From Solirubrobacterales bacterium (GTDB lineage: Bacteria; Bacillota; Syntrophomonadia; Syntrophomonadales; DTU052): a stretch of DNA of 64,000 bases. The notes under the pieces are model-generated. The model ran no database searches, was not told where the DNA came from, and saw nothing but the letters and a program-made list of their open reading frames with translations. The stretch spans positions 6,006 through 70,005 of the forward strand of contig JBLMZI010000009.1 in NCBI GenBank assembly GCA_050258755.1. Direction: 5' to 3'. Shown piece after piece: positions 9,601 through 53,172 of the stretch (position 1 is its first letter; the number at the start of each line of letters is the position of its first letter). Made by a program: the position numbers and the translations under genes.

Positions 9601-9603
9601 ATA

Positions 9604-9888: not shown

Positions 9889-9911
9889 GATGATTCCTCC
9901 TAATTAAGGAT

Positions 9912-9983: not shown

Positions 9984-10042
9984 GTCGACATTGATATCTA
10001 TTTTGTCTTCTAAAGTATTCGAACTGGCGTTAATCGTGTCAT

Positions 10043-12870: not shown

Positions 12871-12883
12871 AAAAAAGCCCCCT

Positions 12884-13543
12884 TTAGGAAGGGGACGTTT
12901 CTTTCAGGAAGTGTTTCAATGGTATATCGTAATACGTTTCGGCGTTTAAGAAAGCCTCGGTCCCTGGCCAATCGCCGGCTGATTCGATCAACTCGATCAA
13001 AGCCCGGTCGTAACCGGTCAATCCGCGCCGGCCGGTCAGAAGGCCTTCTTGTTCCAAATACCGGATTGTCGCTGTCACGCCGCTGGTCACGATCGCGTAC
13101 ACCAGTTCTTCCGTGTCCCCCAAAATATGAGAACAGAGGTAGAAGCGGCAGATCAATGAGCGCACAGGATAAACCGTACACACGCGGTCATTCAGAAAGG
13201 TGCAGGGACCAGTCTTCAATCGGGCCAGCCCATTGGCCAGCCAGACGGGTTCAAAGTGATTCGCCAGGAACTCCCGCGGCGATCCGGCTGTCGCCTGGCA
13301 CAAGGCTTTGAATGAGATCAGGTCCGGAATCACAAAGGCTGCATTGCAACAATTGTTGACACAACCCTTGCAGGCACCGTCCTCACCGGCATACATTTTC
13401 TCGAGACGGGAATCGCTCGCCAGCGGTTCCCAGGCTTCGAGCAGATCACCGAGTGAGGCCGCTTTGTCAGCCACCTCTACCCCCAGACCTAATTTGCCAT
13501 CTTCGGCAGCAATATATACCCTGACCTTCGGCACTATTCCCAT
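12884..13543 (-). CDS. YkgJ/UPF0153-family cysteine-cluster (putative Zn/Fe-binding) protein
   Basis: 219 aa. ACKGCVNNCC followed by GPCTFLNDRVCTVYPVRSLICRFYLC resembles the CxxCxxCC family. The stop is 13 nt upstream of the echA start. Confidence 0.55.
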   Translation of the reverse strand: MGIVPKVRVYIAAEDGKLGLGVEVADKAASLGDLLEAWEPLASDSRLEKMYAGEDGACKGCVNNCCNAAFVIPDLISFKALCQATAGSPREFLANHFEPVWLANGLARLKTGPCTFLNDRVCTVYPVRSLICRFYLCSHILGDTEELVYAIVTSGVTATIRYLEQEGLLTGRRGLTGYDRALIELIESAGDWPGTEAFLNAETYYDIPLKHFLKETSPS

Positions 13544-17846: not shown

Positions 17847-19829
17847 TTACTCGGCTCCTGTTTCGACGGGGGCTTTGCGGTCAAGATACATGGAAACCGC
17901 CGTCACCAGGCCCGCATGGGACCAGGTCAGCGGGCAGACGGATAATGGGGCGCCGGTATATGGATGCATTTGTTCGGGGAGCAAACCCGCCGGCCCGGCC
18001 TGCGCCGACGCCCATTCGATCAAACGCCGGGCCCGCTCCAAATCGCCGGTTTTGTCGCGTTGAATCAGCCATTCCGCGACCCACAGAGTCGTAATAATCC
18101 AGGGATTGCCGGGTACATTCTCAAGATCCTCGCTCCGGCGATGATAGTAATCGCCGGTGTACCGGGCAACCCCGCCAATCGGCGTCTTGACCCAGAGATG
18201 TGCCGCGATCGCTTCCATGGTGGCTTCAATCCGCTCGTCGGATGGCTCAAAAACCCCGAACCCGACCAGTCCATACTGGCTGGCATCCAGCGTAAAATCA
18301 GGGTGGTAGGTCCCATCCGATTCCACATACAGGCCCCGCACAAACCGGCCAACCCCGGTGTGATACAATTGTTCGGCAATGGCCTGCTTTACCCGGCGGG
18401 CGGCGTTTTCGCAGATCCCGGCCAGATGGCCGTCATTCATGCTTTCCGCCATGTGGTTCCCGACCGCCAAGGCCCCATAAACCGAAGCGGCGGTAAATGA
18501 AAAAATACCCCGCCGTTCCTCCCACAGATCCCAGCTCAAACCCGGAAGCCCGGTCAGCGGATCGATGTAGCCCGCCAGAAACAACAAGGCGGGCTTGACC
18601 AGCGGTTCATAAAGTTCAGCCAGGACGTCGTAATCCCCGTACTGGCGGATATGCTCACCCAGTGCCCAGATCACCAGCGCGGTTTCGTCCTCCTGGATCG
18701 GCGGCACTTCCATCCCATGGAGTAGCCGTGGATGCCAGGTCGCGCCGACTGAACCGTCCGGGTTGTAACGCTGCAGAAAAAAGCCCTCCGGCTCAATGAC
18801 GGTGGCACAGAATTTGTAGATCCGCCGCGCTTCCTCTGGGTATCCCGCCTGGTCAAGGCTGCGCGCGATCAAGGCCGCATCGCGCGGCCAGAGATACATG
18901 TAATGGTCTCGGGCAAACTGAAAGGTATCCCCGTCCGGGCTGGCAACCACCGCACCTTTCCGTTCGATCTGGCTTCTGATGGTAAACAGACTGATTTCAT
19001 ACAGTGAAGCGACCGCCGGCGACAGATCCTGAAAATTCCGCTCCGCCCGTTTGATCCAGCTCCGGTAATGAAGACCGACATTGTGAAGCCATTCTTCGAT
19101 GGGCCGTTCCAGTAAATTGCGCTGAAGGGTCCGGACGTCAGAAAGCGAATAACCGCTGATCAGCCAGTAATCGATCACCTCGGACGCGTTCCCGGGAAGC
19201 TGAAGTAAGGCCGACAGTGCGCTGTCGACCGGGCCGTCCGCGATTGGATTCAAGGATAAACGGCCGTCTTCCGCATCCCGGAACGTGCCTTCTTTGCCGT
19301 GATAGCGCTTGACCCCGGCTGAGTATTCGATGGTCCCGCCGCCCGCGGGCCGGCAATTGGCCAGGATATAAATTCCCTTCTTATATTGATAGATTCCGCC
19401 GGTCTGCGGATCGAACACCGCTGAATCCCCGGCCTCGATACCCCGGATCGAAAAGTCCTGGTAGAACAGCACCCGAATTTCACGTGCTTCCGGTTTCAGG
19501 TTCCACACCCTGATGCGCTTCACATAGACATCTTCAGCTGGGTGCAGCGCATCCTGAATTTCCAGCCGAATTTTTAGTTCCGGGTGTTCCGCGCTAATCC
19601 GGGTAATCGGCGTATTGCCGACAACCCCAAAGCTGCGAATCCACTCCGGCTCGAACACCCAGACCATCCGGCCATCCACAAAGACCCCAAAACTGGTCCG
19701 GTTCCGATCGCCATGATTTTCAAATCCGCCGTAAGGCCAGTAAAAATCCCTGAGATTCAGCTCCCGGTCGAAATTGAGCATCATCGATCCATTTCCCAGA
19801 ACCACGTCACGCATGAAGATCCCTCGCAT
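17847..19829 (-). CDS. glycoside hydrolase family 15 (glucoamylase/glucodextranase-like)
   Basis: 660 aa. The N-terminal beta-sandwich is followed by an (alpha/alpha)6 region with YMYLWPRDAALIARSL and WDLWEERRG, characteristic of GH15. The start could be M1 or M6. Confidence 0.8.
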   Translation of the reverse strand: MRGIFMRDVVLGNGSMMLNFDRELNLRDFYWPYGGFENHGDRNRTSFGVFVDGRMVWVFEPEWIRSFGVVGNTPITRISAEHPELKIRLEIQDALHPAEDVYVKRIRVWNLKPEAREIRVLFYQDFSIRGIEAGDSAVFDPQTGGIYQYKKGIYILANCRPAGGGTIEYSAGVKRYHGKEGTFRDAEDGRLSLNPIADGPVDSALSALLQLPGNASEVIDYWLISGYSLSDVRTLQRNLLERPIEEWLHNVGLHYRSWIKRAERNFQDLSPAVASLYEISLFTIRSQIERKGAVVASPDGDTFQFARDHYMYLWPRDAALIARSLDQAGYPEEARRIYKFCATVIEPEGFFLQRYNPDGSVGATWHPRLLHGMEVPPIQEDETALVIWALGEHIRQYGDYDVLAELYEPLVKPALLFLAGYIDPLTGLPGLSWDLWEERRGIFSFTAASVYGALAVGNHMAESMNDGHLAGICENAARRVKQAIAEQLYHTGVGRFVRGLYVESDGTYHPDFTLDASQYGLVGFGVFEPSDERIEATMEAIAAHLWVKTPIGGVARYTGDYYHRRSEDLENVPGNPWIITTLWVAEWLIQRDKTGDLERARRLIEWASAQAGPAGLLPEQMHPYTGAPLSVCPLTWSHAGLVTAVSMYLDRKAPVETGAE

Positions 19830-19936
19830 GAATCAAAATCGGTTTGGGGAAAAATATCCGCGGACTCATTATGTCTCAAATCAAGCGGTTTTATTTGATG
19901 AAGCTGTAGGCAGAAAAACGAAAGGAGGAATGGCTT

Positions 19937-20605
19937 ATGAATCTGGTGCTGGCAATTTTCGCGGTGCTCTTCCTGTTGGCATTGGCATCCTTTTATTTCA
20001 TTCTGCCGGCCGGGCGCCGGCTGGGTGAGCGCAAACCGGCTGTGGGTCCGGAGCCCCGGTTTGCGCCGGAAGAGATTCTTTCCGAGGAATACGCCCTGGA
20101 AGTGGCTCCTATCCCCTGGCCAACTGCCGTGCCGGTGGCCGAACTGCCGCTTTCCTACGAGGAAACCCGGCTGACCTTGCTGGTGCGCGATCCGGAATGG
20201 CTTTTTGCCTATTGGGAAATCAGCCCTGATGATTGGGACCGGCTGCGCGGTCAGCATGGCGATCAACTCTTCCGGCTAGAGCACATCGTGCTTCGTATCG
20301 CTGAAATGGCGGGGGACATGGCATCCTTCGAACTGAACGTGGGCGGGCTGCGCGGCGAATGGCACATCCGGGTGGGCCGGCCTGACACCGCCTATTACGG
20401 CATTCTCGGAGTCCGGCACGGAGACCGCTTCGTCCCGGTGTGCAGTTCCAATGCCGTGATTACCCCACGCAGCGGCTTTTCCAATCAATACGATGACGAA
20501 TGGATGCTGGTCAATGATCATGAACAGCGATTGCTGAAACAGATCGGCGAACTGCCGATTGACCTGACCTCGCCATTTATGTTCAGAAAGGATGGTTCAG
20601 TTTGA
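19937..20605 (+). CDS. DUF4912-like protein with N-terminal membrane anchor
   Basis: 222 aa. LTLLVRDPEWLFAYWEISPDDWDRL is the DUF4912 hallmark as I recall it. The stop overlaps the GH57 start, suggesting translational coupling. Confidence 0.6.
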   Translation: MNLVLAIFAVLFLLALASFYFILPAGRRLGERKPAVGPEPRFAPEEILSEEYALEVAPIPWPTAVPVAELPLSYEETRLTLLVRDPEWLFAYWEISPDDWDRLRGQHGDQLFRLEHIVLRIAEMAGDMASFELNVGGLRGEWHIRVGRPDTAYYGILGVRHGDRFVPVCSSNAVITPRSGFSNQYDDEWMLVNDHEQRLLKQIGELPIDLTSPFMFRKDGSV

Positions 20606-22203
20606 CCAAAGGACTGATCGCCCTGGTGCTCCACGCACACCTGCCTTATGTCCGGCATGCCGAAAACCAGGAACTGCTGGAGGAGCGCTGGTTTTATGAG
20701 GCAATGACCGAAACCTATGTTCCGCTGGTCCGCATCCTCCAGGGACTGCTTCGCGACGGGATCGACTTTCGCGTCACCATATCGCTCAGCCCGCCGCTGA
20801 TCAGCATGATGCAGGACGAACTGGTCATGCGCAAATACCGTCATCACATGGACGGTATACTCCAATTGGCCGAGGCTGAACTGAAACGAAACGAAGACCA
20901 TCCGAAGTTTCGCTACACCTCGCAGATGTACGCCCGGCGTTTTCGGGAAGTCTATGACGAGGTCTTTACCTACCACGGCGGTAATTTGCTGAATGCCTTC
21001 CGTGAATTGGACCGTTCCGGCAAGGTCGAGTTGATCACGTCCTGCGCCACTCACGGTTTTCTCCCGCTGATCGGCACTTCGGACGAGATCGTCCGGGCTC
21101 AGGTTGCGGCCGGTGTTGGTCTGTTCCGCAACGTATTCGGGCACAATCCGCGCGGCATCTGGCTCCCGGAATGCGGCTACCGTCCTGGTCAGGACGCGAT
21201 TCTGCGCGAATTTGGGCTTCGGTATTTCCTGGCCGAAACCCATGGGGTGCTTTACGCATCCCGCCGACCGAAGTATGGGATTTACGCGCCGATTTACTGC
21301 CCGTCCGGCATCGCCGCCTTCGGCCGCGATACGGAATCGTCAAAACAGGTTTGGAGCTCCCAGGAAGGCTACCCGGGTGACGCGGACTACCGCGAGTTTT
21401 ACCGGGACATCGGCTACGATCTGGATTATGACCTGATCCGCGGCTACCTCCCGTCCGGCATCCGCGTCGATACCGGCTTCAAGTACTACCGGATTACCGG
21501 CAAAACCGAACATAAGGAACCGTATGAACCGGATTGGGCCTTTGAAAAAACCGCTCTGCACGCCGGCAACTTTATGTTCAATCGGGAAAAACAGCTTGAA
21601 TACCTGGCCGATTTGATGGATCGGCAGCCTTTGATCGTTGCGCCCTATGACGCCGAACTGTTCGGCCACTGGTGGTGGGAAGGCCCTGACTTCCTGAGCC
21701 ATTTCATGCGCAAATCGGCCTACGACCAGTCCGTCTACCGGCTGGTCACCCCGAGCGAATACCTGTCACTCTATCCGGTCAATCAGGTCGCGGTGCCGAA
21801 TTCCTCCAGCTGGGGGCATAAAGGATACAACGAGGTCTGGCTGGAACAATCCAACGAATGGATTTACCGGCACCTGCACAAGGCCGGCGAACGCATGATT
21901 CAATTGGCCAACCAGCATCCCTGGGCCGACGGCCTGCGGGCCCGGGCTCTCAATCAGGCAGCTCGGGAACTGCTGCTGGCACAGTCCTCCGACTGGGCCT
22001 TTATTATGAAATCGGGAACCATGGTCGATTACGCGGTGCGCCGCACCAAAGAACATCTGAACCATTTCCATCGCCTTTATTACGCTATCCAGGAAGACCG
22101 GGTCGACCCTGAGTGGCTTTGGAGCCTGGAAGAAAACAACAACATCTTCCCCCATCTCAGTTACCGCATCTTTTCGACCGACTACCGCGGTCAAGCCGTG
22201 TAA
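20602..22203 (+). CDS. GH57-family 1,4-alpha-glucan branching enzyme
   Basis: 533 aa. LIALVLHAHLPYVRH..WFYEAMTETYVPL..ELITSCATHGFLPL..APYDAELFGHWWWEG matches GH57 branching enzymes with the C-terminal DUF1957-type region. Confidence 0.8.
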   Translation: MTKGLIALVLHAHLPYVRHAENQELLEERWFYEAMTETYVPLVRILQGLLRDGIDFRVTISLSPPLISMMQDELVMRKYRHHMDGILQLAEAELKRNEDHPKFRYTSQMYARRFREVYDEVFTYHGGNLLNAFRELDRSGKVELITSCATHGFLPLIGTSDEIVRAQVAAGVGLFRNVFGHNPRGIWLPECGYRPGQDAILREFGLRYFLAETHGVLYASRRPKYGIYAPIYCPSGIAAFGRDTESSKQVWSSQEGYPGDADYREFYRDIGYDLDYDLIRGYLPSGIRVDTGFKYYRITGKTEHKEPYEPDWAFEKTALHAGNFMFNREKQLEYLADLMDRQPLIVAPYDAELFGHWWWEGPDFLSHFMRKSAYDQSVYRLVTPSEYLSLYPVNQVAVPNSSSWGHKGYNEVWLEQSNEWIYRHLHKAGERMIQLANQHPWADGLRARALNQAARELLLAQSSDWAFIMKSGTMVDYAVRRTKEHLNHFHRLYYAIQEDRVDPEWLWSLEENNNIFPHLSYRIFSTDYRGQAV

Positions 22204-33528: not shown

Positions 33529-33876
33529 TTACTCTGCGTCCATCGCCATCATCGTGGTCATTTCAAAGCTGTGTTTATGGTTATGGTTGAATGACGTTTC
33601 CCCTTCGGCGTAATGAACGTGCTCATCATCGGAGACGAGTTTCTGCGCTCCGGTTTTCACATAGACCTTATGGTAATGCCCGCGGACGTAATCGGTCATA
33701 CCCCGAAACTCGTGCTCGTGCGACCGGGCATCCAAGGAGACCATTTCCCCGGTCACGCCCACGAAGCGATGGGTGTGATCCGACGCGATCTCAGTGGTTC
33801 CCTGCACTTCGTGAACATGCATCTGCTCGCCATTGTCCCGATTCGCAGCCCCAACCATATATTTTCTGATGCCCAA
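33529..33876 (-). CDS. YmaF-family His-rich protein
   Basis: Track ORF 33529..33912. The likely start is TTG 33874-33876, with GAGGAGGGAAA upstream. Repeated H-x-H blocks (MHVHEVQGTT..HTHRFVGVTG..SHEHEF..GHYHKV..HVHYAEGETS..HNHKH) match YmaF as I recall it. Confidence 0.65.
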   Translation of the reverse strand: MGIRKYMVGAANRDNGEQMHVHEVQGTTEIASDHTHRFVGVTGEMVSLDARSHEHEFRGMTDYVRGHYHKVYVKTGAQKLVSDDEHVHYAEGETSFNHNHKHSFEMTTMMAMDAE

Positions 33877-34203
33877 CGGTTTCCCTCCTCTCCATCTCCT
33901 TCCACAGTCCATTATATGGGCATTTTGAACGTGTGGTTCCTCGTTTTAACCATTATTCAGGACTTTTTGCCGCATTTAATGCTTAATCATTCGGTATATT
34001 GGCCATTATATTGATCAAGATCGCGCGGCACCCGGCTTGCCTTCCCGGATATCCCGGCCGTTTTCAGTCAATAATTATGGGAATGGGCTGAAGGATTTTG
34101 TCGAAGAACCGTCGAAGTTAAGTGGGAACGCGGTTGTCTCACCGCTTCCAGCGGAGGGAAAACCGTTTGTTTTACACATTTAAGGAGGAAAGAGTGATTC
34201 GGA

Positions 34204-34575
34204 ATGGGCAAAAAGATATTGATCTGTGACGACTCTCTCATGATCCGCACGCAGCTGCGCGATTTCATTAACAAACTGGAAGGCGGATACGAAGTTATTG
34301 AGGCCGCGGATGGTAACGCGGCCGTAGAAATGTTTACCGCCAACACCCCGGATCTTGTCTTTTTGGACGTCGTTATGCCCGGACGCGGCGGTCTGGAATG
34401 TCTTCGGCTCATGAAAGAAGCGAATGCCGCAACCCCGGTGGTCATGCTCTCTTCAGTCGGCGCCAAGCATGTCTTAAAAGAAGCTCTGGAGGCAGGTGCA
34501 TCAGACTTCGTACAAAAACCGTGGGGTGAAAAATTGATTTCATCGATCATTGAAAGATTTACGGGAGGTGCCTAA
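34204..34575 (+). CDS. cheY: CheY-like single-domain response regulator
   Basis: 123 aa with an AAGGAGGAAAG RBS. KKILICDDSLMIR, the phospho-acceptor in LVFLDVVMPG, MLSSVG and FVQKPW form a complete receiver with no output domain. Confidence 0.8.
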   Translation: MGKKILICDDSLMIRTQLRDFINKLEGGYEVIEAADGNAAVEMFTANTPDLVFLDVVMPGRGGLECLRLMKEANAATPVVMLSSVGAKHVLKEALEAGASDFVQKPWGEKLISSIIERFTGGA

Positions 34576-34578
34576 GTT

Positions 34579-35466
34579 ATGTTCATTCAGTATTTCGGCA
34601 GCTACCTCCTTAACAAAGGGCTTCTGAATCCTGATCAGCTCAAAGAAGCAATCGAACTCGCCAATTCGACCCAGATCAAACTCGGTATTCTGGCTATGAA
34701 CGCTGGTTTTCTGACGGCCGATCAGATCACCGAAGTCCAGATGCTGCAGCGCACCATGGACAAACGCTTCGGCGAGATCGCCGTTTTGAAAGGCTATTTG
34801 ACGGATTCGCAGGTGGACTCACTGCTGAAAACACAGGAAAAAGGCCATTTGGCGTTAAGTCAAGCGATTGCCGATCTTGATTTTCTCAGTCTGAAGCAGT
34901 TGGAAACTGCACTCCAGGGATATAAAAACGAATCCGGATTAACCAATCAGCAGATTTCGGCGATTCAGGCAGGCGATACCGACACCATCGTCAGGGTCTT
35001 CCTCGACTTCTCGGATCTGAAAGCCGGGGACCAATATTACGAGTTCGCTTCCTTGATGATGCGGAATATCATTCGTTTTCTCGGCGAACTGGCCATGATC
35101 GAGGAACAACTGTCTACCAAAGGGTTCGAAGCGCCTGTGATGGTTACCCAGGAAATCCACGGAGGCGTTTCCCTTCATACCGCCCTGGCGATGGACGAGG
35201 AAACCTTTTTGACCATGGCCCGAAAATACAGTGGACTCAAAATGGATGCCGGTTCCGAACTGGCTGATGCATCGATCACTGAATTTTTGAACCTGAACAA
35301 CGGTCTTTTTATCGTCAACCTGAGTAACAACGGGGTGGACTGTGACCTGACACCCCCGGAAATTACCCGTAACTGCCAGCTGACGACAGATCAGGGTTTT
35401 GTAATCCCGTTTTACCTGGGTTCCGGTACGATCAATCTGATTATTTCGCCGGTATCGCTGGGTTAA
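34579..35466 (+). CDS. fusion protein: N-terminal tandem MshEN-like (c-di-GMP-binding type) motifs plus C-terminal CheX/CheC-like CheY-P phosphatase domain
   Basis: 295 aa, starting 4 nt after the cheY stop. Residues 5-86 carry three 24-residue xFGxxLLxxGLLxxxxLxxxLxxQ-type motifs with 5-residue spacers. The C-terminus has DASITEFLNLNNG..(21-22 aa)..PP, which fits D/S-x3-E-x2-N-x22-P of CheC/CheX. Confidence 0.6.
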   Translation: MFIQYFGSYLLNKGLLNPDQLKEAIELANSTQIKLGILAMNAGFLTADQITEVQMLQRTMDKRFGEIAVLKGYLTDSQVDSLLKTQEKGHLALSQAIADLDFLSLKQLETALQGYKNESGLTNQQISAIQAGDTDTIVRVFLDFSDLKAGDQYYEFASLMMRNIIRFLGELAMIEEQLSTKGFEAPVMVTQEIHGGVSLHTALAMDEETFLTMARKYSGLKMDAGSELADASITEFLNLNNGLFIVNLSNNGVDCDLTPPEITRNCQLTTDQGFVIPFYLGSGTINLIISPVSLG

Positions 35467-35480: not shown

Positions 35481-35525
35481 ACACGGTTCGCGTGAGTGAT
35501 TTTCGCGAACCGTGTTTAATTTTTG
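35481..35525 (+). terminator. intrinsic terminator after the cheY / CheX-like operon
   Basis: acacggttcgcg-tgagtgatttt-cgcgaaccgtgt is followed by ttaatttttg. Confidence 0.75.
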
Positions 35526-35786
35526 AAATTTTATAAAAGAAGGATTTCACAAATCCATCTAGAATATCTTTCTTACAATCCCATCTTTATGAGTTACTTT
35601 GATTTTCAAAACGGAAATCAGACGTATCCAATTGGTCCGGAAAGAGGTCCGATTGATATAGTAAAAGCACTTAAGAAGGGGGTATGCTCGGCGGCCATCG
35701 CTGATGGCTTTTTTTGGATTCTCCAGGTAAAACCAAGTTTCTCAAAATCAACAAAAAGACAAACAAGATCGGGAGGTAATTTAAGA

Positions 35787-38531: not shown

Positions 38532-39344
38532 ATGGCCCCCAAGTCTTTAGAAACAAACCAGCAATCCGCTCTTTCCTCTGCTTTTCAGCCGCGGTGGTTT
38601 TTACTGCAAACACTGGCCTTTTCAGGATTTGCCACGCTCATAGGCACCAGCCTGTTTATGGAGTTATCTCTGCGTGCAAGCCGTTCAGCGTTGGTCACGA
38701 TCCAGATCATGATTCTGGCTCTGGCCGCGCTCATCGCTGTCTCAGCGGTAAAAGTCGCCTACGATCAGCAGGCCAAACACCGAACCAATCTCCTCTCGGC
38801 CCAACAAAACCTTGAGCATGAAAACCTGCTGCTCAGAAATCTTGCCTACCGGGATGGGCTGACCGGTTTGTTCAATTATTCGTATTTCAAAAAGCATCTT
38901 CGGGAAGGTTTGGAAAATGCGGCTCACCATCACGCCTTTTACAGCGTGTTGATGATGGACCTGGATCATTTTAAGCAGTGCAATGATTTGTACGGGCACC
39001 AGTACGGGGACGCGGTTTTAAAAACGGTGGGCGCCATCATTCTCCACACGATCCGGAACTCGGACATCGCCGCGCGCTACGGGGGTGACGAATTCGGAAT
39101 CCTCCTGCCTGGCGCGACCCACGATCAGGCGATGATGGTCGCCGAACGGATCCGGGGCGAAGTCGAGGAATGCTTCAGCCAGATCGACGGTTTGTCGGAA
39201 GGACGGCTGAGCGTTTCGATCGGGATCGGCGTGTTGGAACCGGGTATCCAGGGAGATCCCGACCAACTGCTGAAAACCGCCGATGCCGCCCTGTACCGGG
39301 CCAAAAACCACCGCAATTGGATCGAACTCGACCAGATCGCGTAG
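38532..39344 (+). CDS. membrane-anchored diguanylate cyclase (2 TM plus GGDEF)
   Basis: 270 aa. YRDGLTGLFNYSYF, DLDHFKQCNDLYGH and an intact GGDEF preceded by RNSD (RxxD I-site) in IRNSDIAARYGGDEFGILLP. Confidence 0.85.
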   Translation: MAPKSLETNQQSALSSAFQPRWFLLQTLAFSGFATLIGTSLFMELSLRASRSALVTIQIMILALAALIAVSAVKVAYDQQAKHRTNLLSAQQNLEHENLLLRNLAYRDGLTGLFNYSYFKKHLREGLENAAHHHAFYSVLMMDLDHFKQCNDLYGHQYGDAVLKTVGAIILHTIRNSDIAARYGGDEFGILLPGATHDQAMMVAERIRGEVEECFSQIDGLSEGRLSVSIGIGVLEPGIQGDPDQLLKTADAALYRAKNHRNWIELDQIA

Positions 39345-39391
39345 GCTGATCCACAGCGCGGTATCACCAAAAATTGACGCCACAGTACCCG

Positions 39392-39420
39392 AAAAGCCCG
39401 GAATCATTCCGGGCTTTTTC
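39392..39420. terminator. bidirectional intrinsic terminator (GGDEF / CHASE4-GGDEF-HD-GYP convergent pair)
   Basis: aaaagcccgg-aatcatt-ccgggctttt. Confidence 0.8.
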
Positions 39421-39453
39421 CTTGACGGATTCTCTTTTCCTTAAGACCGCTGG

Positions 39454-42400
39454 TTAACGGCTTTTCTCCAGATCGCCTGAGATCTTGATAAACAGCGGAA
39501 CCAGATCAGGGTCAAACTGGGTTCCCGCCATCCGCGTCAGTTCGAGCAAGGCAGCGGCCCGATCCATCGCGGCCCGCTGCGGGCGCGCATGGGTCATGGC
39601 GTCATAGGCGTCAGCGATGGACAGAATCCGGCATTCAATCGGAATTGAGTGGCCTTTCAAACCCAGGGGATATCCCTGCCCGTTGTACCATTCATGATGC
39701 TTCAAAAGCCAATCCGAAACGGAAGACAAATCCGGCGCCGCCTGCGCAATGCGATGCCCGGTCTCGGAATGACGGCGGACATCCTGCATTTCTTCCGGTG
39801 ACAGCGGCCCGGGCTTGAATAGAACCGCATCGGCGATGCTGACCTTGCCAATGTCATGGAACCGCGCCAATTTCTGCAGTTGGTCGATGTCGTACGCCTC
39901 GCCGAGCGCTTCCATCATTTTCTCCAGATAAACCGCCAGCCGCTCCGGATGCCCATCACCGAAAAAGTCACGGGGTTCCAGCGATTTCAGCAGGTTGTGT
40001 ATCATCGAACTGCGTGCACTGGTGCTGCTCTGCAGCTTTTCCCGGTACATGTTATCGTCCGCCATTTTGTACAGATCATAGACACTCAGCGAAGCATCCT
40101 GCCTCACCGCATAGCCGATCGACAGGCTGACCGGGAAATCGGGATGCTTCTCGTTGTGCTCTACGGTGGTGCGCCGGATCCGGTCACAGACTTCCTGCAC
40201 CGTGGCTTCCGGACTGTTGGGAAGGATCACACCGAATTCGTCACCGCCGACCCGGGCGATGACGTCCCCATCCCGGAGACAGGTTCGCAAGACCCTGGTG
40301 ACTTCAATCAGCAGGGCATCGCCGGCCGCGTGTCCGCGCCCGTCATTCATAAGTTTTAACCCGTCGACGTCACTCACGATCAGCCCGACCGGGTCGTGCC
40401 GGCCGCGCTCCATCCGGTCCAGTTCCTCTTCGAAGTAGGCCCGGTTGTACAAACCTGTCAGCGGATCGTGCATGCCTAGATACCGAAGTTTTTCTTCCAC
40501 GGCTTTTCGTTCGGAAATATCCTCAGCCAGAACCAGGCCGCCGACGATATTGCCGTCCTGGATGATCGGGGATGCGTTTATCCGGGCATCGAAGGCCTCA
40601 CCCTTTTTATTGACCAGCTGTAGATCGAAACTGTCCATTTTCCCCCTGCTCAGCCTGCGAGCCACTTTTGACGCGATTGATGAGCGCTGCTCAGGTTCCA
40701 CCAGCTCCCAGACATAGCGGCCGAGCAGTTCTTCCGGCTGAAATCCCCAGAACTCGACCGATTTGGCATTCACAAAGTTGATCCTGGCCTGATCATCATA
40801 GGTCACAAACAGTTCGTTCAGGCTGTCGATCAAGGTGTTCAGATACAGCACCTGCAGGGCCAGCTGGCGTTCGCTGTCCTCCAGGGCCTGTTTGACCCGC
40901 CGGCGCTGCAGAATCTTCATCAACTCGTTCATCAGAAGGGTAACCTGGCGAATATCCGACTGGTCGTATTCGATATCCTTGTTGGCCACGCCGATCAGGG
41001 ATACCGTTTTGTCCTGTTCGACAATCGGAACGATCAAGGCCCGGCGCAGCCGGACATGACCGTGCGGCAGTTGGGGCTTCGGATCGATGCTTTCGTAATC
41101 ATTGATGATCACCGGCTGCCGGGTCCTGACCGCTTCACCCCAGAAGTTCTTGTTTTCAAGCAGGATCACCGTGTCGCTCTGGTCAGCGAGACAATCCCGG
41201 GCGGTTTGGCGGGACCAGGCGTCAATCACCATGAGCCGCTCATCCTGTACAAAGGCGACAAAGCCGTATTTGCTTCCGGTCAGCCGTACCGCTTCCTCGA
41301 GCGCGTAGTCGGTCAGTTCGCGCGGGTTGGACTCGGCCATCTGGTTCATGCTGAGCAGCGCTTCCAGACGCATTTCGTCCAGGATCAGCCGGGTCTCTAT
41401 CATTTTGCGGTCGTGAACATTGCGCCCGACCGCCTGGAACTCGTGATTCGGTTCCCCTTCCACGCTGATCAGACGGCAGGTCCAGTTGTGCCAGCGGCGC
41501 TCGCCCTGCGCGTTCCGGAACATGCGCTCGAAAAAGACGACTTCGCGGGTGACGATCAGGTGATCAAGGAGTGCCAGAATGTCCTGCCAATCTTTGTCGC
41601 TGACGAGATCCCGCACCCGGGTTTCCAGCACCAGATTCAGCGGGCGCCCCACATACCTGGTAAATGCCTGATTCGCAAAGGTAATGGTTCCGTCCCGGCG
41701 GAAGCGGAAAATCAATTCGGTCTGGTCTTCCACCACAGCCCGATAACGGTTTTCGCTTAAGGTCAGATGCTGTTGAGAAGCCTGAAGGGTCAGCAGCATA
41801 TCGTTAATCCCCTCGCCGAGAGCGGCCAGCTCATCACTGCCGCGGATCGGGACCCGGATCGTGGGGTCATTGGAAGCGCCGATCGTGGAAACCACCGAAG
41901 AGATTTGAAACAGGCGCACCAGCACGAGCTGGCGGAACAGCAGGTAGGCCGCCACAGAACAGAGCGCAATGAAGATCATTAGAAAGAGCATGAAGTTGGC
42001 GAAGAATTCCTTGTTCTTTTGGAAGATGTCGCGCTTCATCGTGACCCCGATAACAGCGGCCGGGCGGCCTTCGATATCGCGGATCGCCTGATAGCCGGCA
42101 AGCTGATCAGGATGACTTACCACCGGTGCAATCACCTGTTCCTTGGACTGAGCCCCGGTTCCAAAGCGGCCAGGTTCGTAAGGACCGATCGAAAAACTTA
42201 GATTGGTCGTGTTTTGCAGGTACTTCATTTCCAACGAATCGACAAAACGGCCCATGATCAGCGTACCGCGAATCGGTCCCCGGTACTGGCTGTTCAGAAG
42301 CGGGCGGGAAACGACCATCAGCGGTCCTTCCGGCAGGAGCAGCATTCCCTGCAAAGTACTGCTTGGGTCAGTGTGCTGAAGCAGTTTTGCGCCCGGCCGG

Positions 42401-42804
42401 ACGTAGCGGTAAAACGATTTTGGGATAGGAACCGGTTTTTCGTTGATGCGGTCATAACCCATCGCCATGACGATACCGCCCTGGCGGTCCACGATCATGA
42501 CCAGATTCAGCCGCAGCTTGCGGAAACTTTCGGGGATGAAATTCTCTGTGATGTATGCGGGGTCGGGGTTGACGACATAGGTGTAGGTGTCATCCCAGCC
42601 GGCATAATCGCCGCACAGGGAATCCATACCGATTAATTCTGAATGAATGGCATTGGTCGCCCGGCTGAGATTCTGCTCCATCTCCCGTTTTTCCAGCTCG
42701 GTGAAGGTCTGGTCGAGCAGGTGATTGGAGATGAGCTTCAGCACGGTTACCGAGAGGAGAACCACCACAAAAAATATGCTGATGATTTTGTCTCGTAAGC
42801 TCAT
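39454..42804 (-). CDS. multidomain c-di-GMP signalling protein: TM-CHASE4-like-TM-HAMP-PAS-GAF-PAS-GGDEF-HD-GYP
   Basis: 1116 aa. The extracytoplasmic region carries DYAGWDDTYTYV (CHASE4-like). HAMP is (..GSDELAALGEGINDMLLTLQ). GGDEF is intact with RDGD (RxxD) upstream. HD-GYP is marked by FHDIGK and HHEWYNGQGYPLGL. Confidence 0.8.
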   Translation of the reverse strand: MSLRDKIISIFFVVVLLSVTVLKLISNHLLDQTFTELEKREMEQNLSRATNAIHSELIGMDSLCGDYAGWDDTYTYVVNPDPAYITENFIPESFRKLRLNLVMIVDRQGGIVMAMGYDRINEKPVPIPKSFYRYVRPGAKLLQHTDPSSTLQGMLLLPEGPLMVVSRPLLNSQYRGPIRGTLIMGRFVDSLEMKYLQNTTNLSFSIGPYEPGRFGTGAQSKEQVIAPVVSHPDQLAGYQAIRDIEGRPAAVIGVTMKRDIFQKNKEFFANFMLFLMIFIALCSVAAYLLFRQLVLVRLFQISSVVSTIGASNDPTIRVPIRGSDELAALGEGINDMLLTLQASQQHLTLSENRYRAVVEDQTELIFRFRRDGTITFANQAFTRYVGRPLNLVLETRVRDLVSDKDWQDILALLDHLIVTREVVFFERMFRNAQGERRWHNWTCRLISVEGEPNHEFQAVGRNVHDRKMIETRLILDEMRLEALLSMNQMAESNPRELTDYALEEAVRLTGSKYGFVAFVQDERLMVIDAWSRQTARDCLADQSDTVILLENKNFWGEAVRTRQPVIINDYESIDPKPQLPHGHVRLRRALIVPIVEQDKTVSLIGVANKDIEYDQSDIRQVTLLMNELMKILQRRRVKQALEDSERQLALQVLYLNTLIDSLNELFVTYDDQARINFVNAKSVEFWGFQPEELLGRYVWELVEPEQRSSIASKVARRLSRGKMDSFDLQLVNKKGEAFDARINASPIIQDGNIVGGLVLAEDISERKAVEEKLRYLGMHDPLTGLYNRAYFEEELDRMERGRHDPVGLIVSDVDGLKLMNDGRGHAAGDALLIEVTRVLRTCLRDGDVIARVGGDEFGVILPNSPEATVQEVCDRIRRTTVEHNEKHPDFPVSLSIGYAVRQDASLSVYDLYKMADDNMYREKLQSSTSARSSMIHNLLKSLEPRDFFGDGHPERLAVYLEKMMEALGEAYDIDQLQKLARFHDIGKVSIADAVLFKPGPLSPEEMQDVRRHSETGHRIAQAAPDLSSVSDWLLKHHEWYNGQGYPLGLKGHSIPIECRILSIADAYDAMTHARPQRAAMDRAAALLELTRMAGTQFDPDLVPLFIKISGDLEKSR

Positions 42805-43002
42805 TGCGCTGTTTGATCCTCCCGATCCCAGGATCGGCCATCCCGGGGCTTTTCCGGGACATTGTCGGCCGGTTACTTTCCGGTAGGATTGCCTGAAAAG
42901 GACCGATCACGAAGGTTCCATCGGGATCGGTCGGGGGTACCCAGCGAAAATGATTGGCTTACCGGCTGCCTGATACACGCAGCCGGTAAAGCGTCACAGA
43001 GG

Positions 43003-43248
43003 TCAGCGACAGCAGACCGTCACATTGTATCCCGGGAAATTGCGCTTGCAGTACTCGGTCGCCTCGTCGCGGGCTCTGAAGACCATCCATCCGCCCTCAT
43101 CGCGCAGCCGGCCAACCCCTTTTACCGGGGTTTCCTCCCGCGAGCCCGCGATGCAGCAATTTTGATTCCCGTGGATCGTGCAGATGCCGCTTGCGGTATC
43201 CACATCGAGCCATACCGCTGGACGTAGAAACACGGGCATCTCCTCCAT
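43003..43248 (-). CDS. hypothetical small Cys-rich protein (81 aa)
   Basis: An ORF with genome-like GC3-rich codon usage lies between two sensor genes. I recognise no motif beyond five Cys (C..CC...C..CC), and the RBS is weak. Confidence 0.3.
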   Translation of the reverse strand: MEEMPVFLRPAVWLDVDTASGICTIHGNQNCCIAGSREETPVKGVGRLRDEGGWMVFRARDEATEYCKRNFPGYNVTVCCR

Positions 43249-43358
43249 TCCCTGTCTCTCTGTATCTTGATCATATCACAAAAAGGCCCGGAATGGCTTC
43301 CTATCTTCCCAGTACTGCCCGGCCAAAAACCGTTGCAAATACCGGTTACACAGGCGGT

Positions 43359-44825
43359 TTATTTCAAACTGGACTCGTCCTCTTTCTGCCCAGAATCGGT
43401 ATGCGGTCCAAGCAGGTGACGGGTCAGGGCAAAGTCTCCATTCGCCGGGTTATAGGATAGAAAGTCGACCGCAACCGGCCCCTGGCCTGGCTGAACCGTG
43501 AGAATTGCCAGAGAGTAGTCAACCCCGCTATCGGTGGAGAAGCCGCGCAGACCCGCGGCCCCCGTCGTACCTGGGTTGATTAGGACCGATTCATGCAGCC
43601 GGCTGATGCCAAGCCGGTGCGTATGACCTGAAACCACAACCGGCGCCAGACCGGCCAGACGCTTGCCCAAACGCGGATTGTGAACCACGATCAAATCCGG
43701 CTTTGCGCTGTTGTCTTCCAACAAAGCCCGGACACTCTGTTCCTGAAGCTCAAGCCCGTCCAGATAGGCCTTCGAATTCACAGCTGGGGTTGGAAAAGCG
43801 ATGGCCGGGTCTGGCAGGCCAAAAACCCGGATGCCCTTGGTTGTAATCGTTTTGCCGTCTAGCATCCGGACCGATGACAGCTGCTTCAAGTAATTCAGCG
43901 TATCCGCCTTGTCATGGTTTCCCGCCGCAAACAGCTGCTGGATGCCGGTTTCAACCAGACTCTGAATAAATGGGGTCTCCAATTTGGTCCCGTAATCGGT
44001 TAAATCGCCTGCGTTGACGATTAAGTCCACCCGAAATTTCCTGGCCACCGAATTCATCAGTGTGATCCCAACCGGATTGGCGTGGAGATCGCTGACCAGC
44101 AATATTCGCCGGGTCCCGGTCTTCTGGTCGGGATTCGCCAGGACCGGAATATCTTCGACCCTGGAATACAGCGAGCGTATGCTGTTCACCACGTTTCCGG
44201 TCGCGGCGGGCAGGTCGCCGCCGCGCTCCCACAATTCGCCCGCCAGGCTGATAACGTCCGGTGCCAGCGCCAGCGTCCCGGTGTAAGTCGGCTCCCGGAA
44301 CGCCGCCGGATTATACGTTCGAAGCATCATGAAAAAAACGCCGCCCACCATCACAGCCCCGCACGCACCGAGCAGCAGCGCCGGCCGAAGCCCGCGGCGC
44401 CAGATCAGCAGCGAGACGGCGAACGCGCCCAGAGCCGCCAGCACAATCTCGCGGACGGCAAACCCGGTCAGACGCGGCTGGATTTCGGCTTCAAAGGTTC
44501 GCATGGCCTGGCGCCGTTCTTCCTGGTTGGCCAGACGTTTTGCCAGGGTTTCGGTTTCGATGTGATCAAGCCGGACCAACAACTCGGCCGGAGCCCGGTG
44601 GGTGTGGGCCTGAATTGTGCCAAGCGGCGGTATTTCCAGGGTGGTAACGCCGGTCAAGGCGGGCTCTATCCGGACGCCAAGGGTCAAGCCGTCAGTCTGC
44701 AGCAATACCATGCCAAAAAGGTGCAGAAACAGAAGCGCACCGCACAGCGCGGTGACCAGATGACCGGAAGAAAGTAAAAAGCCCCGGACCAAATGGCGGA
44801 ATCGGGGCCAGTCCATGGTTTGCAT
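43359..44825 (-). CDS. membrane-anchored calcineurin-like metallophosphoesterase
   Basis: Track ORF 43359..44843. The likely start is ATG 44823-44825. N-terminal TM helices are followed by LLVSDLHAN, NAGDLTDYG, AAGNHD and VVSGHTHR. Confidence 0.75.
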   Translation of the reverse strand: MQTMDWPRFRHLVRGFLLSSGHLVTALCGALLFLHLFGMVLLQTDGLTLGVRIEPALTGVTTLEIPPLGTIQAHTHRAPAELLVRLDHIETETLAKRLANQEERRQAMRTFEAEIQPRLTGFAVREIVLAALGAFAVSLLIWRRGLRPALLLGACGAVMVGGVFFMMLRTYNPAAFREPTYTGTLALAPDVISLAGELWERGGDLPAATGNVVNSIRSLYSRVEDIPVLANPDQKTGTRRILLVSDLHANPVGITLMNSVARKFRVDLIVNAGDLTDYGTKLETPFIQSLVETGIQQLFAAGNHDKADTLNYLKQLSSVRMLDGKTITTKGIRVFGLPDPAIAFPTPAVNSKAYLDGLELQEQSVRALLEDNSAKPDLIVVHNPRLGKRLAGLAPVVVSGHTHRLGISRLHESVLINPGTTGAAGLRGFSTDSGVDYSLAILTVQPGQGPVAVDFLSYNPANGDFALTRHLLGPHTDSGQKEDESSLK

Positions 44826-44971
44826 ATCGTCTCCCTCGTACAAGGCGGCTTATCACCGGGCCGCCTTTGGTGATACTCCAGTATAACACGCCCGTTTCGG
44901 CATCTTTGACTGGTGATTGGCGGGAATAAAGGGATTCTTGCCTAAAGCTCAAGGTCTGGGGAAGGGGCAGC

Positions 44972-47617
44972 CTAATTCGTTTTCTCGGTGACCGCGTCCG
45001 GGTTAAATCGGGGCAGCGTAACCAAAAAAACACTCCCCTGTCCGACCGTTGATTCAACTGAAAACTGTCCGCCATGGTGATCGATGATCAGTTTGCTGAT
45101 CGGAAGCCCCAGCCCGGTGCCGCGCGGTTTGCCGGTCAAAGTATCCCCCGCCTGCTTGAATTTATCAAATATCTGCGCCTGATCGGCCGGATCAATCCCG
45201 ATCCCGGTGTCTTCCACCCGCAGCATGATCGTGTCCCCGAGCCGACCGGCGGTAATATCCACATAACCCCGATCGGTGAATTTGGCGGCATTGGAAAGCA
45301 GATTGATGATGACCTGGATCAGCCGGTCCCGGTCCCCATAAATCGGCGGCAGTTCCTTGGACACTTCCACCCGCAGTTCAACACCTTTCTCCAGGAAAAG
45401 CGGCATCGTGGCTTCTATCGCCCGTTCGACCAGTTCGGACGGCAAGACCGGTTCCATGCGCCAATCGGCTCCGCCGGCTTCCATTTTAGCAAGGTCGAGC
45501 ACATCGTTAATCAAGGCGGTCAGACGAGTCCCTTCAAGCACAATAATCCGCGTGTTCTCCATCACCTGATCCATCGCCCGCTGGACTCGGGGATCTGACA
45601 GATTGATATGCGGGAAGACCACATTCTCCAGCCGGTTCTTAATCAGCTTGGCAAAACCCAGCACAGCGGTCAGCGGTGTACGCAGTTCATGAGAGACGTT
45701 GGACAGAAAATCGGTTTTCAGCTTGTCCAGTTGGGTCAATTTCTCGTTTGATTCAATGAGCGCCTGCTCCATCCGCTTGATCCGGGTGATATCCCGAAGC
45801 GATTCGATCGCACCGACCAGTTCGCCATTCGCGTTGCGAAGCCCGACCGCAGCCACCAGCAGATAGGCTTCCTCACCCAGCAGGTTGGGAATGTACACCT
45901 GTCCCAGGATAACATTGCCACGGGCTTCGTCCGGTTCGAAAACCTCTTCCAGTTCCCGGCTTGGATCAAGCACCTGGTCGATCAGCATGGTCCGATGTTC
46001 GCCATAAAAAGCGAGGGCGTATTCCCGCTCGGTTTTCCCGAGCATGCGGTCGGCCGAATAACCGGTCATTTCCTCCAGGGAACGGTTCCAGGCAATGACC
46101 CGGCCTGCCCGGTCGATGACGAACATCGCATCCGGGAAAAAATCGATGATTTCGGCAAGCCGCCGTTCCGATTCATACAAGGCCTCTTCAGCCCGTTTCC
46201 GCTCGGTAAAATCCCGCACACTGCCAACCATGATGCTGCCGCCGGGGCCCTCACCGACCACCAGCTTCGAATTGATTTCTGACCAGATGGGCAGGCCGCT
46301 GCTTTTAATCATGCGGAAAACAACGCCGGACATATGAAGGTCAGAGCTGCTGAACGCCTGATTGATGGCGTTGAAAACCATTTCGCGGTCGTCCGGGTGA
46401 ATGTACCAGAAAAACGGAGTTCCAATCAGTTGATCGGCGCTGTCATATTCGAGCATGCGGACACCCGCTGAATTGACCGATATCAACCGTCCCTTTTCGT
46501 CCACGGCATAGATGAGGTCCGGGGAATATTCAACCAGATTCCGATAGCGCTCTTCACTGATCACGATGTCGCGCTGGTATTTTTCCAGGGTGCTCATCAT
46601 GGTATTGATGTTATCCGCCAGATTGGCGAGTTCGTCATGCCCTTCCACTCGGATGCGGCGGCTTAAGTTTCCGGTTTGGCCAACAATGGTTACGGTATCG
46701 TTCAAGTCGGCCAACCGGGACAAAACCACCCGGTTCTGGAAGAACAAATTCCCGATCCCCAGGACCAGCGCACTCAAGCAGATCAAGGTGACAAACACGA
46801 TGATGGCCCTGCGCCCCTGAATGGTCACTTCCCGCGGCATGGTTACGCGTAAAACCGTCGCCGGTCCCCCATAGACGTCATTCAGGAAAACATGGCCGCT
46901 GATGAGCTGGCGGTTCAGCACCTGAACGTAGATAGGTTGGCTGCCGCTCAGTTTTGACAAGACCGCTGCCCTAGGCAAGGCCGACGCCTGCTTTGGCATC
47001 AGCCTGATCTTCAACTGGGTCGTTTGTTCCATATCAGCGATATAGTCTGGATCAATAAAGCGGCCAATGACCACGGTTCCGCGAATGGGTCCCTCTCCCT
47101 CACTGGTCAGAATCGGCCGGCTGGAGATGATCATCAATCCTTCCGGCAGTTGAAGCAATCCCTGATTGACGCCTTCTTCGCCGGAAAACGCGAGGAGTCG
47201 GCTGCCCGGTTCCAATTGATGCCGCAATGACTCCGGAACGTCTATTTTGCGGTTGCTATTGAGGTCAAAACCCTGGAGGTAAACCGGTATCCCATTGAGA
47301 TCGAAAAAGCCAAAAACGCTGGCTCCAAGTTGTTCGAAGGTGGTATCGACAAGGTTGGAACGAACATAGGCCGGATCGCCTGTGGCAATGAATTCAACCG
47401 TATCATTCCACATGGCATAATCGGCGATTTTACGGGTCAGGTTTTCCTGCCGGTTGGAAAGTTCACTGAGGACGCGATTGACATCGCGCAGGACGGTTTG
47501 TTCTTCGAGGGTTTCAAAGCTCTGCCACAGGACGAAGTAAAGTACCAGCACAATCGCACAGATCAATGCCAGGGTGGTTAATCCGATAAACGCGAGGACC
47601 TTTTCCCGGACCGTCAT
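44972..47617 (-). CDS. sensor histidine kinase: TM-CHASE4-like-TM-HAMP-PAS x2/3-HisKA-HATPase
   Basis: Track ORF 44972..47722. I prefer ATG 47615-47617, with GAGGGG 9 nt upstream. The sensor region carries DYAMWNDTVEFI. The H-box is SHELRTPLTAVLGF, and the N/G boxes are NLLSNAAKFT, EDTGIGI and GTGLGL. No response regulator gene is adjacent. Confidence 0.85.
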   Translation of the reverse strand: MTVREKVLAFIGLTTLALICAIVLVLYFVLWQSFETLEEQTVLRDVNRVLSELSNRQENLTRKIADYAMWNDTVEFIATGDPAYVRSNLVDTTFEQLGASVFGFFDLNGIPVYLQGFDLNSNRKIDVPESLRHQLEPGSRLLAFSGEEGVNQGLLQLPEGLMIISSRPILTSEGEGPIRGTVVIGRFIDPDYIADMEQTTQLKIRLMPKQASALPRAAVLSKLSGSQPIYVQVLNRQLISGHVFLNDVYGGPATVLRVTMPREVTIQGRRAIIVFVTLICLSALVLGIGNLFFQNRVVLSRLADLNDTVTIVGQTGNLSRRIRVEGHDELANLADNINTMMSTLEKYQRDIVISEERYRNLVEYSPDLIYAVDEKGRLISVNSAGVRMLEYDSADQLIGTPFFWYIHPDDREMVFNAINQAFSSSDLHMSGVVFRMIKSSGLPIWSEINSKLVVGEGPGGSIMVGSVRDFTERKRAEEALYESERRLAEIIDFFPDAMFVIDRAGRVIAWNRSLEEMTGYSADRMLGKTEREYALAFYGEHRTMLIDQVLDPSRELEEVFEPDEARGNVILGQVYIPNLLGEEAYLLVAAVGLRNANGELVGAIESLRDITRIKRMEQALIESNEKLTQLDKLKTDFLSNVSHELRTPLTAVLGFAKLIKNRLENVVFPHINLSDPRVQRAMDQVMENTRIIVLEGTRLTALINDVLDLAKMEAGGADWRMEPVLPSELVERAIEATMPLFLEKGVELRVEVSKELPPIYGDRDRLIQVIINLLSNAAKFTDRGYVDITAGRLGDTIMLRVEDTGIGIDPADQAQIFDKFKQAGDTLTGKPRGTGLGLPISKLIIDHHGGQFSVESTVGQGSVFLVTLPRFNPDAVTEKTN

Positions 47618-47803
47618 CCACGAAGCCCCTCTTTCATCGAGATCATTGCGCCTAATACTTTCTCGCGTCATCCCGCCAAATCCTCTTCCAAACCTGAAAA
47701 TTCGAGCGGAAATACCTGGCAATCATTGCCTGCGTCACAAAACAGTACGCCGCGATCTTTCACGATCGCGGCGTAGCTCATTGGTTAATAGAACCAGTTT
47801 CGC

Positions 47804-52956: not shown

Positions 52957-53172
52957 CCCCCTTTCTTCCCCATATTGTAATAGAAGCGCCCGGTGGAAGT
53001 AAACCGCCGGGCCAGGCCCAGGAAAGGAACTTTCTGCTTTCCCCGCGGAACGCTGTTCTCTTATTTCCAACCTTGTGAAGGAGAAAGTCGAATTACGTCG
53101 AAAATCGAAAGAGATACACTACCAGATGCGCTATTCAATGCTGCTCGCCGTCACAACCGGAGGGATCGTTTC

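Follow-up and report, generated by a model that had tools for sequence, protein, structure and literature searches.

A candidate cyclic di-GMP-gated CheX-type phosphatase encoded next to a CheY-like receiver in a Bacillota-type genome

In a 64,000-nt stretch of contig JBLMZI010000009.1 (positions 6,006 to 70,005 of the forward strand; assembly GCA_050258755.1, Solirubrobacterales bacterium), hereafter the window, we studied two adjoining genes that may connect cyclic di-GMP (c-di-GMP) to a phosphorelay. The first encodes a 123-amino-acid (aa) single-domain, CheY-like receiver (REC) and the second a 295-aa protein in which four MshEN-type motifs precede a CheX domain (Table 1). The best-supported reading is that binding of c-di-GMP to the N-terminal half would gate dephosphorylation of the receiver by the C-terminal half. 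Both open reading frames (ORFs) are present as an earlier note on this DNA had described them. Only 3 nt separate the REC stop codon from the ATG of the second gene, a spacing consistent with co-translation of the two. The unit is closed by an intrinsic-terminator-like hairpin, for which RNA folding gave -22 kcal/mol (z -4.1), with none of 200 shuffles as stable. A consensus terminator scan had overlooked this hairpin because its loop is longer than 8 nt, and direct folding recovered it. A scan for sigma-70 promoters upstream of the REC gene returned no match, and no Rfam family, c-di-GMP riboswitches included, was found in the 291-nt leader or elsewhere in the window. A 160-aa ORF on the reverse strand (34068-34550) was rejected as a gene, being an antisense shadow of the REC reading frame.

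Table 1. Coordinates of the two-gene unit, its parts and neighbouring candidate c-di-GMP genes (positions within the window; residues are those of the 295-aa protein).
Feature	Position	Strand	Remarks
123-aa single-domain receiver (CheY-like REC) gene	34204..34575	+	ATG 34204, TAA stop 34573-34575
GGGAGG, Shine-Dalgarno of the 295-aa protein gene	34563..34568	+	inside REC 3' end, 10 nt before ATG 34579; read from the sequence
295-aa protein gene	34579..35466	+	starts ATG 34579; four MshEN-type motifs, two linker helices, CheX domain
Motif 1 (residues 5-28)	34591..34662	+	YFGSYLLNKGLLNPDQLKEAIELA, then spacer NSTQI; degenerate
Motif 2 (residues 34-57)	34678..34749	+	KLGILAMNAGFLTADQITEVQMLQ, then spacer RTMDK; canonical
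Motif 3 (residues 63-86)	34765..34836	+	RFGEIAVLKGYLTDSQVDSLLKTQ; canonical
Motif 4 (residues 92-115)	34852..34923	+	degenerate fourth unit
Linker (residues 116-145)	34924..35013	+	two short helices, H123-131 and H134-141 (DSSP of model), from sensor to CheX helix α1
CheX domain (residues ~146-295)	35014..35463	+	Foldseek and Pfam CheX
Predicted catalytic E-x2-N (E235-F-L-N238)	35281..35292	+	in long helix, residues 227-250
Intrinsic-terminator-like hairpin	35481..35526	+	12-bp perfect stem, 11-nt loop, then UUUAAUUUUUG (U-rich tail)
ComFB + PAS protein, 315 aa	37334-38281	-	Pfam ComFB 5.8e-20; two genes downstream of the pair, adjoins GGDEF genes
GGDEF protein, 270 aa	38532-39344		
CHASE4-PAS-GAF-PAS-GGDEF-HD-GYP protein, 1116 aa	39454-42804		
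GGDEF protein with HD-GYP-type HD domain	52993-54963		

The 123-aa protein matches Pfam Response_reg (3.6e-27), and its best solved relative is CheY of Thermotoga maritima (1TMY, E 6e-19); against the NCBIfam CheY equivalog it scores 83, where the cutoff is 200. Its phospho-acceptor residues D9, D10, D55, S83 and K105 are conserved (S or T at 83) in 79-80 of the 80 partner receivers. Across 81 loci that encode the CheX fusion, the REC gene immediately precedes the fusion gene in 77, at a spacing of -47 to +40 nt, and immediately follows it in three. The earlier note had proposed a two-gene module, and this stands: REC adjoins the fusion gene in 80/81 loci and is joined to it in some genomes. 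Two natural single-chain proteins of 435 aa (P0246 and P0248) combine four MshEN motifs, CheX and REC, which provides independent evidence that the CheX domain acts on its partner receiver. Besides REC, only an ABC-ATPase family recurs in more than 16 of the 81 loci, at varying positions, and nothing beyond REC is conserved around the module. An apparent "151-aa neighbour" cluster at eight related loci was discarded as an antisense shadow ORF of REC arising from naive gene calls. The single locus lacking a REC neighbour is that of Alkalihalobacillus bogoriensis (L037, 4341-10897), where glgC/glgA/glgP-like glycogen genes lie directly upstream of the CheX fusion. Glycogen phosphorylase or amylase genes occur near the module in about five loci each, and the window itself carries glycogen-related GH15 and GH57 genes (17847-22203) 12-16 kb from the pair; this association is weak and may be due to chance.

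The 24-residue motifs of the 295-aa protein start at residues 5, 34, 63 and 92, an exact period of 29 residues. The three units and 5-residue spacers given in the earlier note were exact (residues 5-28, 34-57 and 63-86), and the MshEN motif and 5-residue spacer that it had set out agree verbatim with the published definition (Wang et al. 2016, PMC5013675). The assignment of the N-terminus to MshEN was likewise confirmed by a hidden Markov model (HMM) search, in which NCBIfam NF053729 ("cyclic di-GMP-binding domain, MshE-related") scored 56.6 bits (E 1.7e-15; cutoff, 38 bits); the match falls in two stretches, the best covering residues 6-53. The match is far beyond chance. Sub-cutoff Pfam matches of the N-terminus to FumaraseC_C, DUF4388, phage holin and Fez1 were rejected as generic helical-hairpin similarity.

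In the published definition the ligand is contacted by the Arg at position 1, the backbone amides of positions 3 and 4 and the Gln at position 24, and guanine is contacted by a hydrophobic cluster of which the Leu at position 21 is part (Wang et al. 2016, PMC5013675). We assessed the conservation of these positions in 120 homologues, those listed of 179 database relatives, which are 34-54% identical to the window protein and nearly all full length (about 290 aa). In motif 2, K34 is K or R in 119/120, and G36 and Q57 are invariant; in motif 3, R63 is always R or K, and G65, A68 and Q86 are invariant. The spacer before motif 3 is also constrained, D61 being the same in every homologue and K62 in nearly every one. 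Motifs 2 and 3 (residues 34-86) therefore carry K/R, G and Q at MshEN positions 1, 3 and 24 and are joined by a 5-residue spacer, their sole deviation being position 21 of motif 2, where H, N, C or Q replaces Leu (Q in the window protein, H in most members). The two outer motifs are degenerate. Position 1 of motif 1 is Y or F rather than R or K, and its terminal Q is found in 43% of the homologues; motif 4 has mostly L at position 1, G, A or S at position 3 and, without exception, Y or F at position 24.

An AlphaFold2 model of the 295-aa protein, built from the 120 homologues (mean predicted local distance difference test score, pLDDT, 87.9; predicted template modelling score, pTM, 0.73), starts with four hairpins (eight helices), which are followed by two linker helices and an α/β domain. 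The eight-helix part matches the MshEN_N trait of a four-helix bundle made of two hairpins, and Foldseek superposed the model on c-di-GMP-bound MshE (5HTL_B) over 55 columns with a root-mean-square deviation (rmsd) of 0.9 Å and a probability of 1.00. The family profile matches MshE (5HTL, E 7e-6) and PilF (6F8L, E 2.6e-7), and aligns MshE R9-Q32 onto motif 2.

These hairpins could instead be a structural or dimerisation module that derives from MshEN and does not bind c-di-GMP, as in XpsE/GspE, in which case the CheX domain would be constitutive or otherwise regulated. The clear degeneration of motifs 1 and 4, the polar residue that motif 2 has at position 21, and the few substitutions by which non-binding relatives differ (Wang et al. 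2016, PMC5013675) all speak for this possibility. We nevertheless consider it unlikely: with the two inner motifs holding K/R in 119-120 of 120 homologues, an invariant G and Q and an invariant spacer D61, contact residues fixed at 34-54% identity are hard to explain by maintenance of the fold alone. In addition, the score exceeds by 18 bits the cutoff of NF053729, a model made for motifs that bind c-di-GMP.

The C-terminal ~150 residues adopt a CheX fold in the model. Foldseek matched them to 3HM4, 1SQU, 1XKO, 6VPW and 3HZH (E 2e-10 to 7e-9; target TM 0.74-0.81), with 146-158 aligned columns that cover nearly the whole target, and structures of CheC, FliY and FliM matched clearly worse. Pfam CheX (PF13690) scored 28.8 bits against a cutoff of 27, so that both the profile search and the structure prediction uphold the CheX fold that the earlier note had proposed for this domain. 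That note had also read a D/S-x3-E-x2-N-x22-P phosphatase site here. The corresponding segment, DASITEFLNLNNG (residues 230-242), includes E235 and N238, and P259-P260 follow at N+21 and N+22. E235-x2-N238 falls on the E-x-x-N of CheX proteins from Borrelia and Thermotoga, among them the one in the CheX-CheY3 complex (3HZH). Within the homologues N238, F236, N241 and G242 are invariant (120/120) and position 235 holds E in 102 sequences and D in the other 18; the site as described was thus found, the Asn being invariant, the Glu always E or D, and the Pro looser.

A catalytic role does not follow from the fold alone, as the CheC/CheX/FliY/FliM fold has non-catalytic members and FliM was also matched (E 1e-4 to 1e-3). 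Together with the marginal Pfam CheX score, this would suit a CheX-like domain that docks phosphorylated REC (REC~P) and is not a phosphatase, like FliM and some CheC-like proteins, so that a c-di-GMP effector would sequester or present the receiver. We regard this alternative as quite improbable, given a target TM of 0.74-0.81 for CheX as against 0.3-0.56 for FliM or CheC, and an Asn that is invariant and a Glu that is always E or D, both at the E-x-x-N positions of CheX from Borrelia and Thermotoga. The equivalent Asn is essential in Vibrio cholerae CheX (N94A; PMC12799141).

How the four hairpins pair would bear on the number of c-di-GMP sites in the sensor half. We computed residue couplings by mean-field direct coupling analysis (DCA) of 338 sequences (effective number of sequences, Meff, 253). 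Among the top 45 N-terminal couplings, nine connect hairpins 1 and 4, nine connect 2 and 3, and four connect 2 and 4, leaving one between 1 and 2 and none between 3 and 4; in the top 100 the counts are 19 (2-3), 14 (1-4), 7 (3-4) and 2 (1-2). The same motif positions recur in the 1-4 and the 2-3 couplings, p19/p23 being paired with p9 (E23/L27-L100 and E52/L56-K71), and compensatory changes, including charge swaps, occur at K13-E118, E23-L100 and E52-K71. The coupling of rank 3 joins L21 (p17 of motif 1) to L93 (p2 of motif 4), and p17-p2 is a type of contact made within one bundle (Wang et al. 2016, PMC5013675). This covariation leads us to think that the hairpins are probably nested, motifs 2 and 3 forming one fully canonical c-di-GMP site, an inner bundle set into the spacer of a degenerate outer bundle of motifs 1 and 4. 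In the model, pLDDT dips at spacers 29-33 and 87-91 and not at 58-62, and the helices of motifs 2 and 3 begin at position 2, as needed for the amides of positions 3 and 4 to be free for guanine. The helices of motifs 1 and 4 begin three residues before position 1 (at residue 2 in motif 1).

A less probable arrangement would place two MshEN_N domains in tandem (motifs 1+2 and 3+4), each binding one c-di-GMP through a canonical and an aromatic-substituted half-site, for two ligands per chain. Wang et al. (2016, PMC5013675) aligned Glov_2742 of Geobacter lovleyi in this way, and the two stretches of the NF053729 match, the best at residues 6-53, fit it as well. Profile registers are divided among the possible pairs: MshE and EpsG fall on motifs 2+3, NF053729 is best on 1+2, and PilF domain 1, PilB and NfrB are placed on 3+4. 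The last three are best on residues 61-116, where "DKRFG" resembles the opening "DKRLG" of PilF domain 1, and the aromatic residues Y5 and Y115 could stack on guanine. Identity in the Foldseek alignment to 5HTL (24% over 55 columns) amounts to 13/55 in register 2+3, and some register 1+2 windows equal this. The tandem arrangement is, however, at odds with the couplings, which are nearly nil for 1-2 and 3-4 (1 and 0 of the top 45) and many for 2-3 and 1-4, and with the third-ranked coupling, which joins motif 1 to motif 4 through the canonical p17-p2 contact. Moreover, pLDDT reaches its lowest values in the spacers that separate motif 1 from motif 2 and motif 3 from motif 4. Finally, the early start of the modelled motif 1 and 4 helices would bury their guanine-binding position 3 and 4 amides within the helix, which argues against tandem domains.

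We propose that the receiver is phosphorylated on D55 by a kinase which, like the target of REC~P, would be encoded outside the locus. The eight-helix N-terminal module would bind c-di-GMP, and binding would alter how efficiently E235 and N238 of the CheX domain enter the receiver active site; in this way the cellular c-di-GMP level would set the lifetime of REC~P. Every element within reach of sequence and structure tools was borne out by them, so gating of REC dephosphorylation by c-di-GMP is the best-supported reading, and we give it a probability of roughly 0.7. The domain identities, the fold, the conservation of ligand-contacting and catalytic residues and the obligate pairing with REC are shown by our data; we infer the binding, the catalysis and their coupling. 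A more elaborate version is doubtful, though worth stating: in a nested double bundle, the conserved aromatic residues Y5 and Y115 of the outer bundle together with the two flexible 5-residue tethers might serve as a lever passing ligand binding on to CheX helix α1, and the protein and its dedicated receiver might form a self-contained, c-di-GMP-controlled phosphoryl drain that in most Bacillota acts outside chemoreceptor arrays. As speculation, REC could be an alternative CheY or a phosphate sink for a CheA encoded elsewhere.

Several points weigh against c-di-GMP gating as set out above. Position 21 of motif 2 is polar (H/N/C/Q) where the canonical Leu contacts guanine, and the MshEN-like XpsE lost c-di-GMP binding through few substitutions (Wang et al. 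2016, PMC5013675). The nested arrangement is drawn from covariation at a Meff of about 253, and in the alignment of Wang et al. Glov_2742 has two domains in tandem. On the phosphatase side, the Pro of the CheC/CheX pattern is not strict (P259 in 85/120), the Pfam CheX score is barely over its threshold (28.8 vs 27), and sequence-only matches to the PDB are weak (E 0.0045). We found no published experimental test of any member of the family in the full-text literature.

The earlier note had suggested that the module would couple many GGDEF/HD-GYP enzymes of the window to a phosphorelay. Such enzymes are indeed present, but they amount to only three proteins, two of them with HD-GYP, and their adjacency to the module is not conserved. 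Within six genes of the module, GGDEF proteins are encoded at 8/81 loci, HD-GYP proteins at 2/81 and methyl-accepting chemotaxis proteins (MCPs) at 10/81. The low frequency of GGDEF proximity (8/81) indicates that the local GGDEF/HD-GYP cluster is incidental and no trait of the family. The region 38532-47722 is dense in c-di-GMP and sensor genes: besides the 270-aa and 1116-aa proteins of Table 1, it encodes a 916-aa CHASE4-HAMP-PAS histidine kinase as well as a metallophosphoesterase. Two neighbours there share the CHASE4 sensor type and have different outputs, which suggests that one signal feeds both c-di-GMP turnover and a phosphorelay. Several histidine kinases are encoded in the window. 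ComFB proteins were recently described as a widespread family of cyclic dinucleotide (c-di-NMP) receptors (PMC12448109), so the 315-aa ComFB + PAS protein is a second candidate c-di-GMP receptor in the cluster.

No che or fla genes were found among the scanned ORFs of the window or in the annotation of the matching public contig. The statement of the earlier note that none are nearby is therefore true of this locus, but does not extend to the whole family, as some lineages have CheA-like histidine phosphotransfer (HPt) kinases, MCPs and CheW alongside. An HPt-type kinase lies within two genes of the module at 5/81 loci. At three Thermodesulfobacteriota-type loci (L064, L066 and L081; about 9200-13500) the order is CheX fusion, REC and a ~670-aa HPt-HATPase kinase, which is without a CheW domain and has a weak CBS match in one of the three; MCPs flank one of these loci. 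In Pelosinus (L077, 7600-16500) the pair is surrounded by genes for two MCPs, a kinase-like protein with a CheW domain and a protein with three CheW domains. Adjacent CheA-like HPt kinases and MCP/CheW genes in this minority of lineages make a chemosensory origin likely; the module probably derives from chemosensory pathways and in some lineages works with a CheA-type kinase. Across most Bacillota, the window included, receiver and phosphatase travel only with each other, and kinase and target are encoded elsewhere.

An exhaustive profile search (E <= 1e-30) yielded 464 clusters at 50% identity, nearly all of them 285-315 aa long and aligned over their full length. Species-representative genomes contain at least 508 relatives, mostly in Bacillota (Clostridia, Bacillaceae, Negativicutes, Peptococcia) with few in Thermodesulfobacteriota. 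The architecture is not new, since it was catalogued by Wang et al. (2016, PMC5013675), whose main text mentions MshEN fused to "phosphatase CheX" and whose Supplementary Table 4 lists "(MshEN_N)2 - CheX" for Geobacter lovleyi Glov_2742, with Deltaproteobacteria and Firmicutes as its range and no experiment cited. Residues 1-120 of the window protein align without gaps to the printed N-terminal ~130 residues of Glov_2742 (ACD96455; 28% identity, E 5e-17). The window protein is a correctly identified and well-supported new member of this catalogued family. In public annotations the relatives are called "chemotaxis protein CheX" or "hypothetical protein", or carry the misleading name "bacteriophage adsorption protein". 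A protein identical to ours (P0001) is deposited as [quoted passage not shown], that is, from a metagenome-assembled genome (MAG) placed in Actinomycetota. SpoIID (1673-2668) and YmaF (33529-33912) are, however, encoded in the window, the pair has its closest relatives in Bacillota (Desulforudis, Peptococcia), and other near relatives are labelled as Acidobacteriota and Chitinophagales MAGs, all from one single project. The Solirubrobacterales, Acidobacteriota and Chitinophagales labels look like binning or taxonomy errors.

Compared with known systems, the closest likeness is to Glov_2742, which has the same architecture, an aromatic residue at position 1 of motif 1, His at position 21 of motif 2 and an aromatic residue at position 24 of motif 4. 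Relative to the catalogued (MshEN_N)2-CheX proteins, the window copy lies in a spore-forming Bacillota-type genome with REC upstream and no kinase nearby, whereas the three Thermodesulfobacteriota-type loci examined are ordered CheX fusion, REC, HPt kinase. With MshE (5HTL) and PilF/PilB it shares the 24-residue motifs, the 5-residue spacers and the four-helix bundle, and positions 1, 3 and 24 are kept in motifs 2 and 3. It differs from them in having four hairpins instead of two, probably nested, and a polar position 21 in motif 2; it lacks the MshEN_C/T2SSE_N1 subdomain and the ATPase, and a phosphatase would take the place of the secretion or pilus ATPase as its output.

Stand-alone CheX proteins (Borrelia burgdorferi 3HZH; Thermotoga maritima 1XKO/1SQU) have the same fold and E-x2-N helix and likewise an adjoining gene for a CheY-like substrate. 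The window protein, by contrast, adds an N-terminal sensor of ~145 residues, is encoded at a locus without che or fla genes, and is 13-22% identical to the solved CheX proteins. In V. cholerae, the separate PilZ protein PlzC inhibits CheX in trans, reportedly independently of c-di-GMP (PMC12799141, 2026). The two systems are alike in that a c-di-GMP receptor protein modulates, or would modulate, the CheX phosphatase and thereby CheY~P, but in the window protein the receptor is of the MshEN type and is fused to CheX in cis. Another chemosensory phosphotransfer component containing MshEN_N is a CheA of Aeromonas veronii with the domain inserted (Wang et al. 2016, Supplementary Table 4), the module being on the kinase there and on the phosphatase here.

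Input of c-di-GMP into phosphorelays and chemotaxis is well studied for PilZ proteins acting at the motor and barely for CheY-P phosphatases, the sole worked case at that level being PlzC-CheX of V. cholerae, which acts in trans and independently of the nucleotide (PMC12799141). The family described here would be a cis version, in which one polypeptide reads c-di-GMP and dephosphorylates a dedicated receiver. Its value lies in the experimental opportunity and not in a newly discovered architecture: the protein is small and soluble, the gene for its substrate adjoins it, and it occurs in hundreds of Bacillota species, which makes it an easy biochemical system. It is a candidate for a missing c-di-GMP receptor of Gram-positive spore-formers. 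If the nested arrangement is true, these organisms, with few known c-di-GMP receptors, would gain direct control by c-di-GMP over a two-component or chemosensory pathway.

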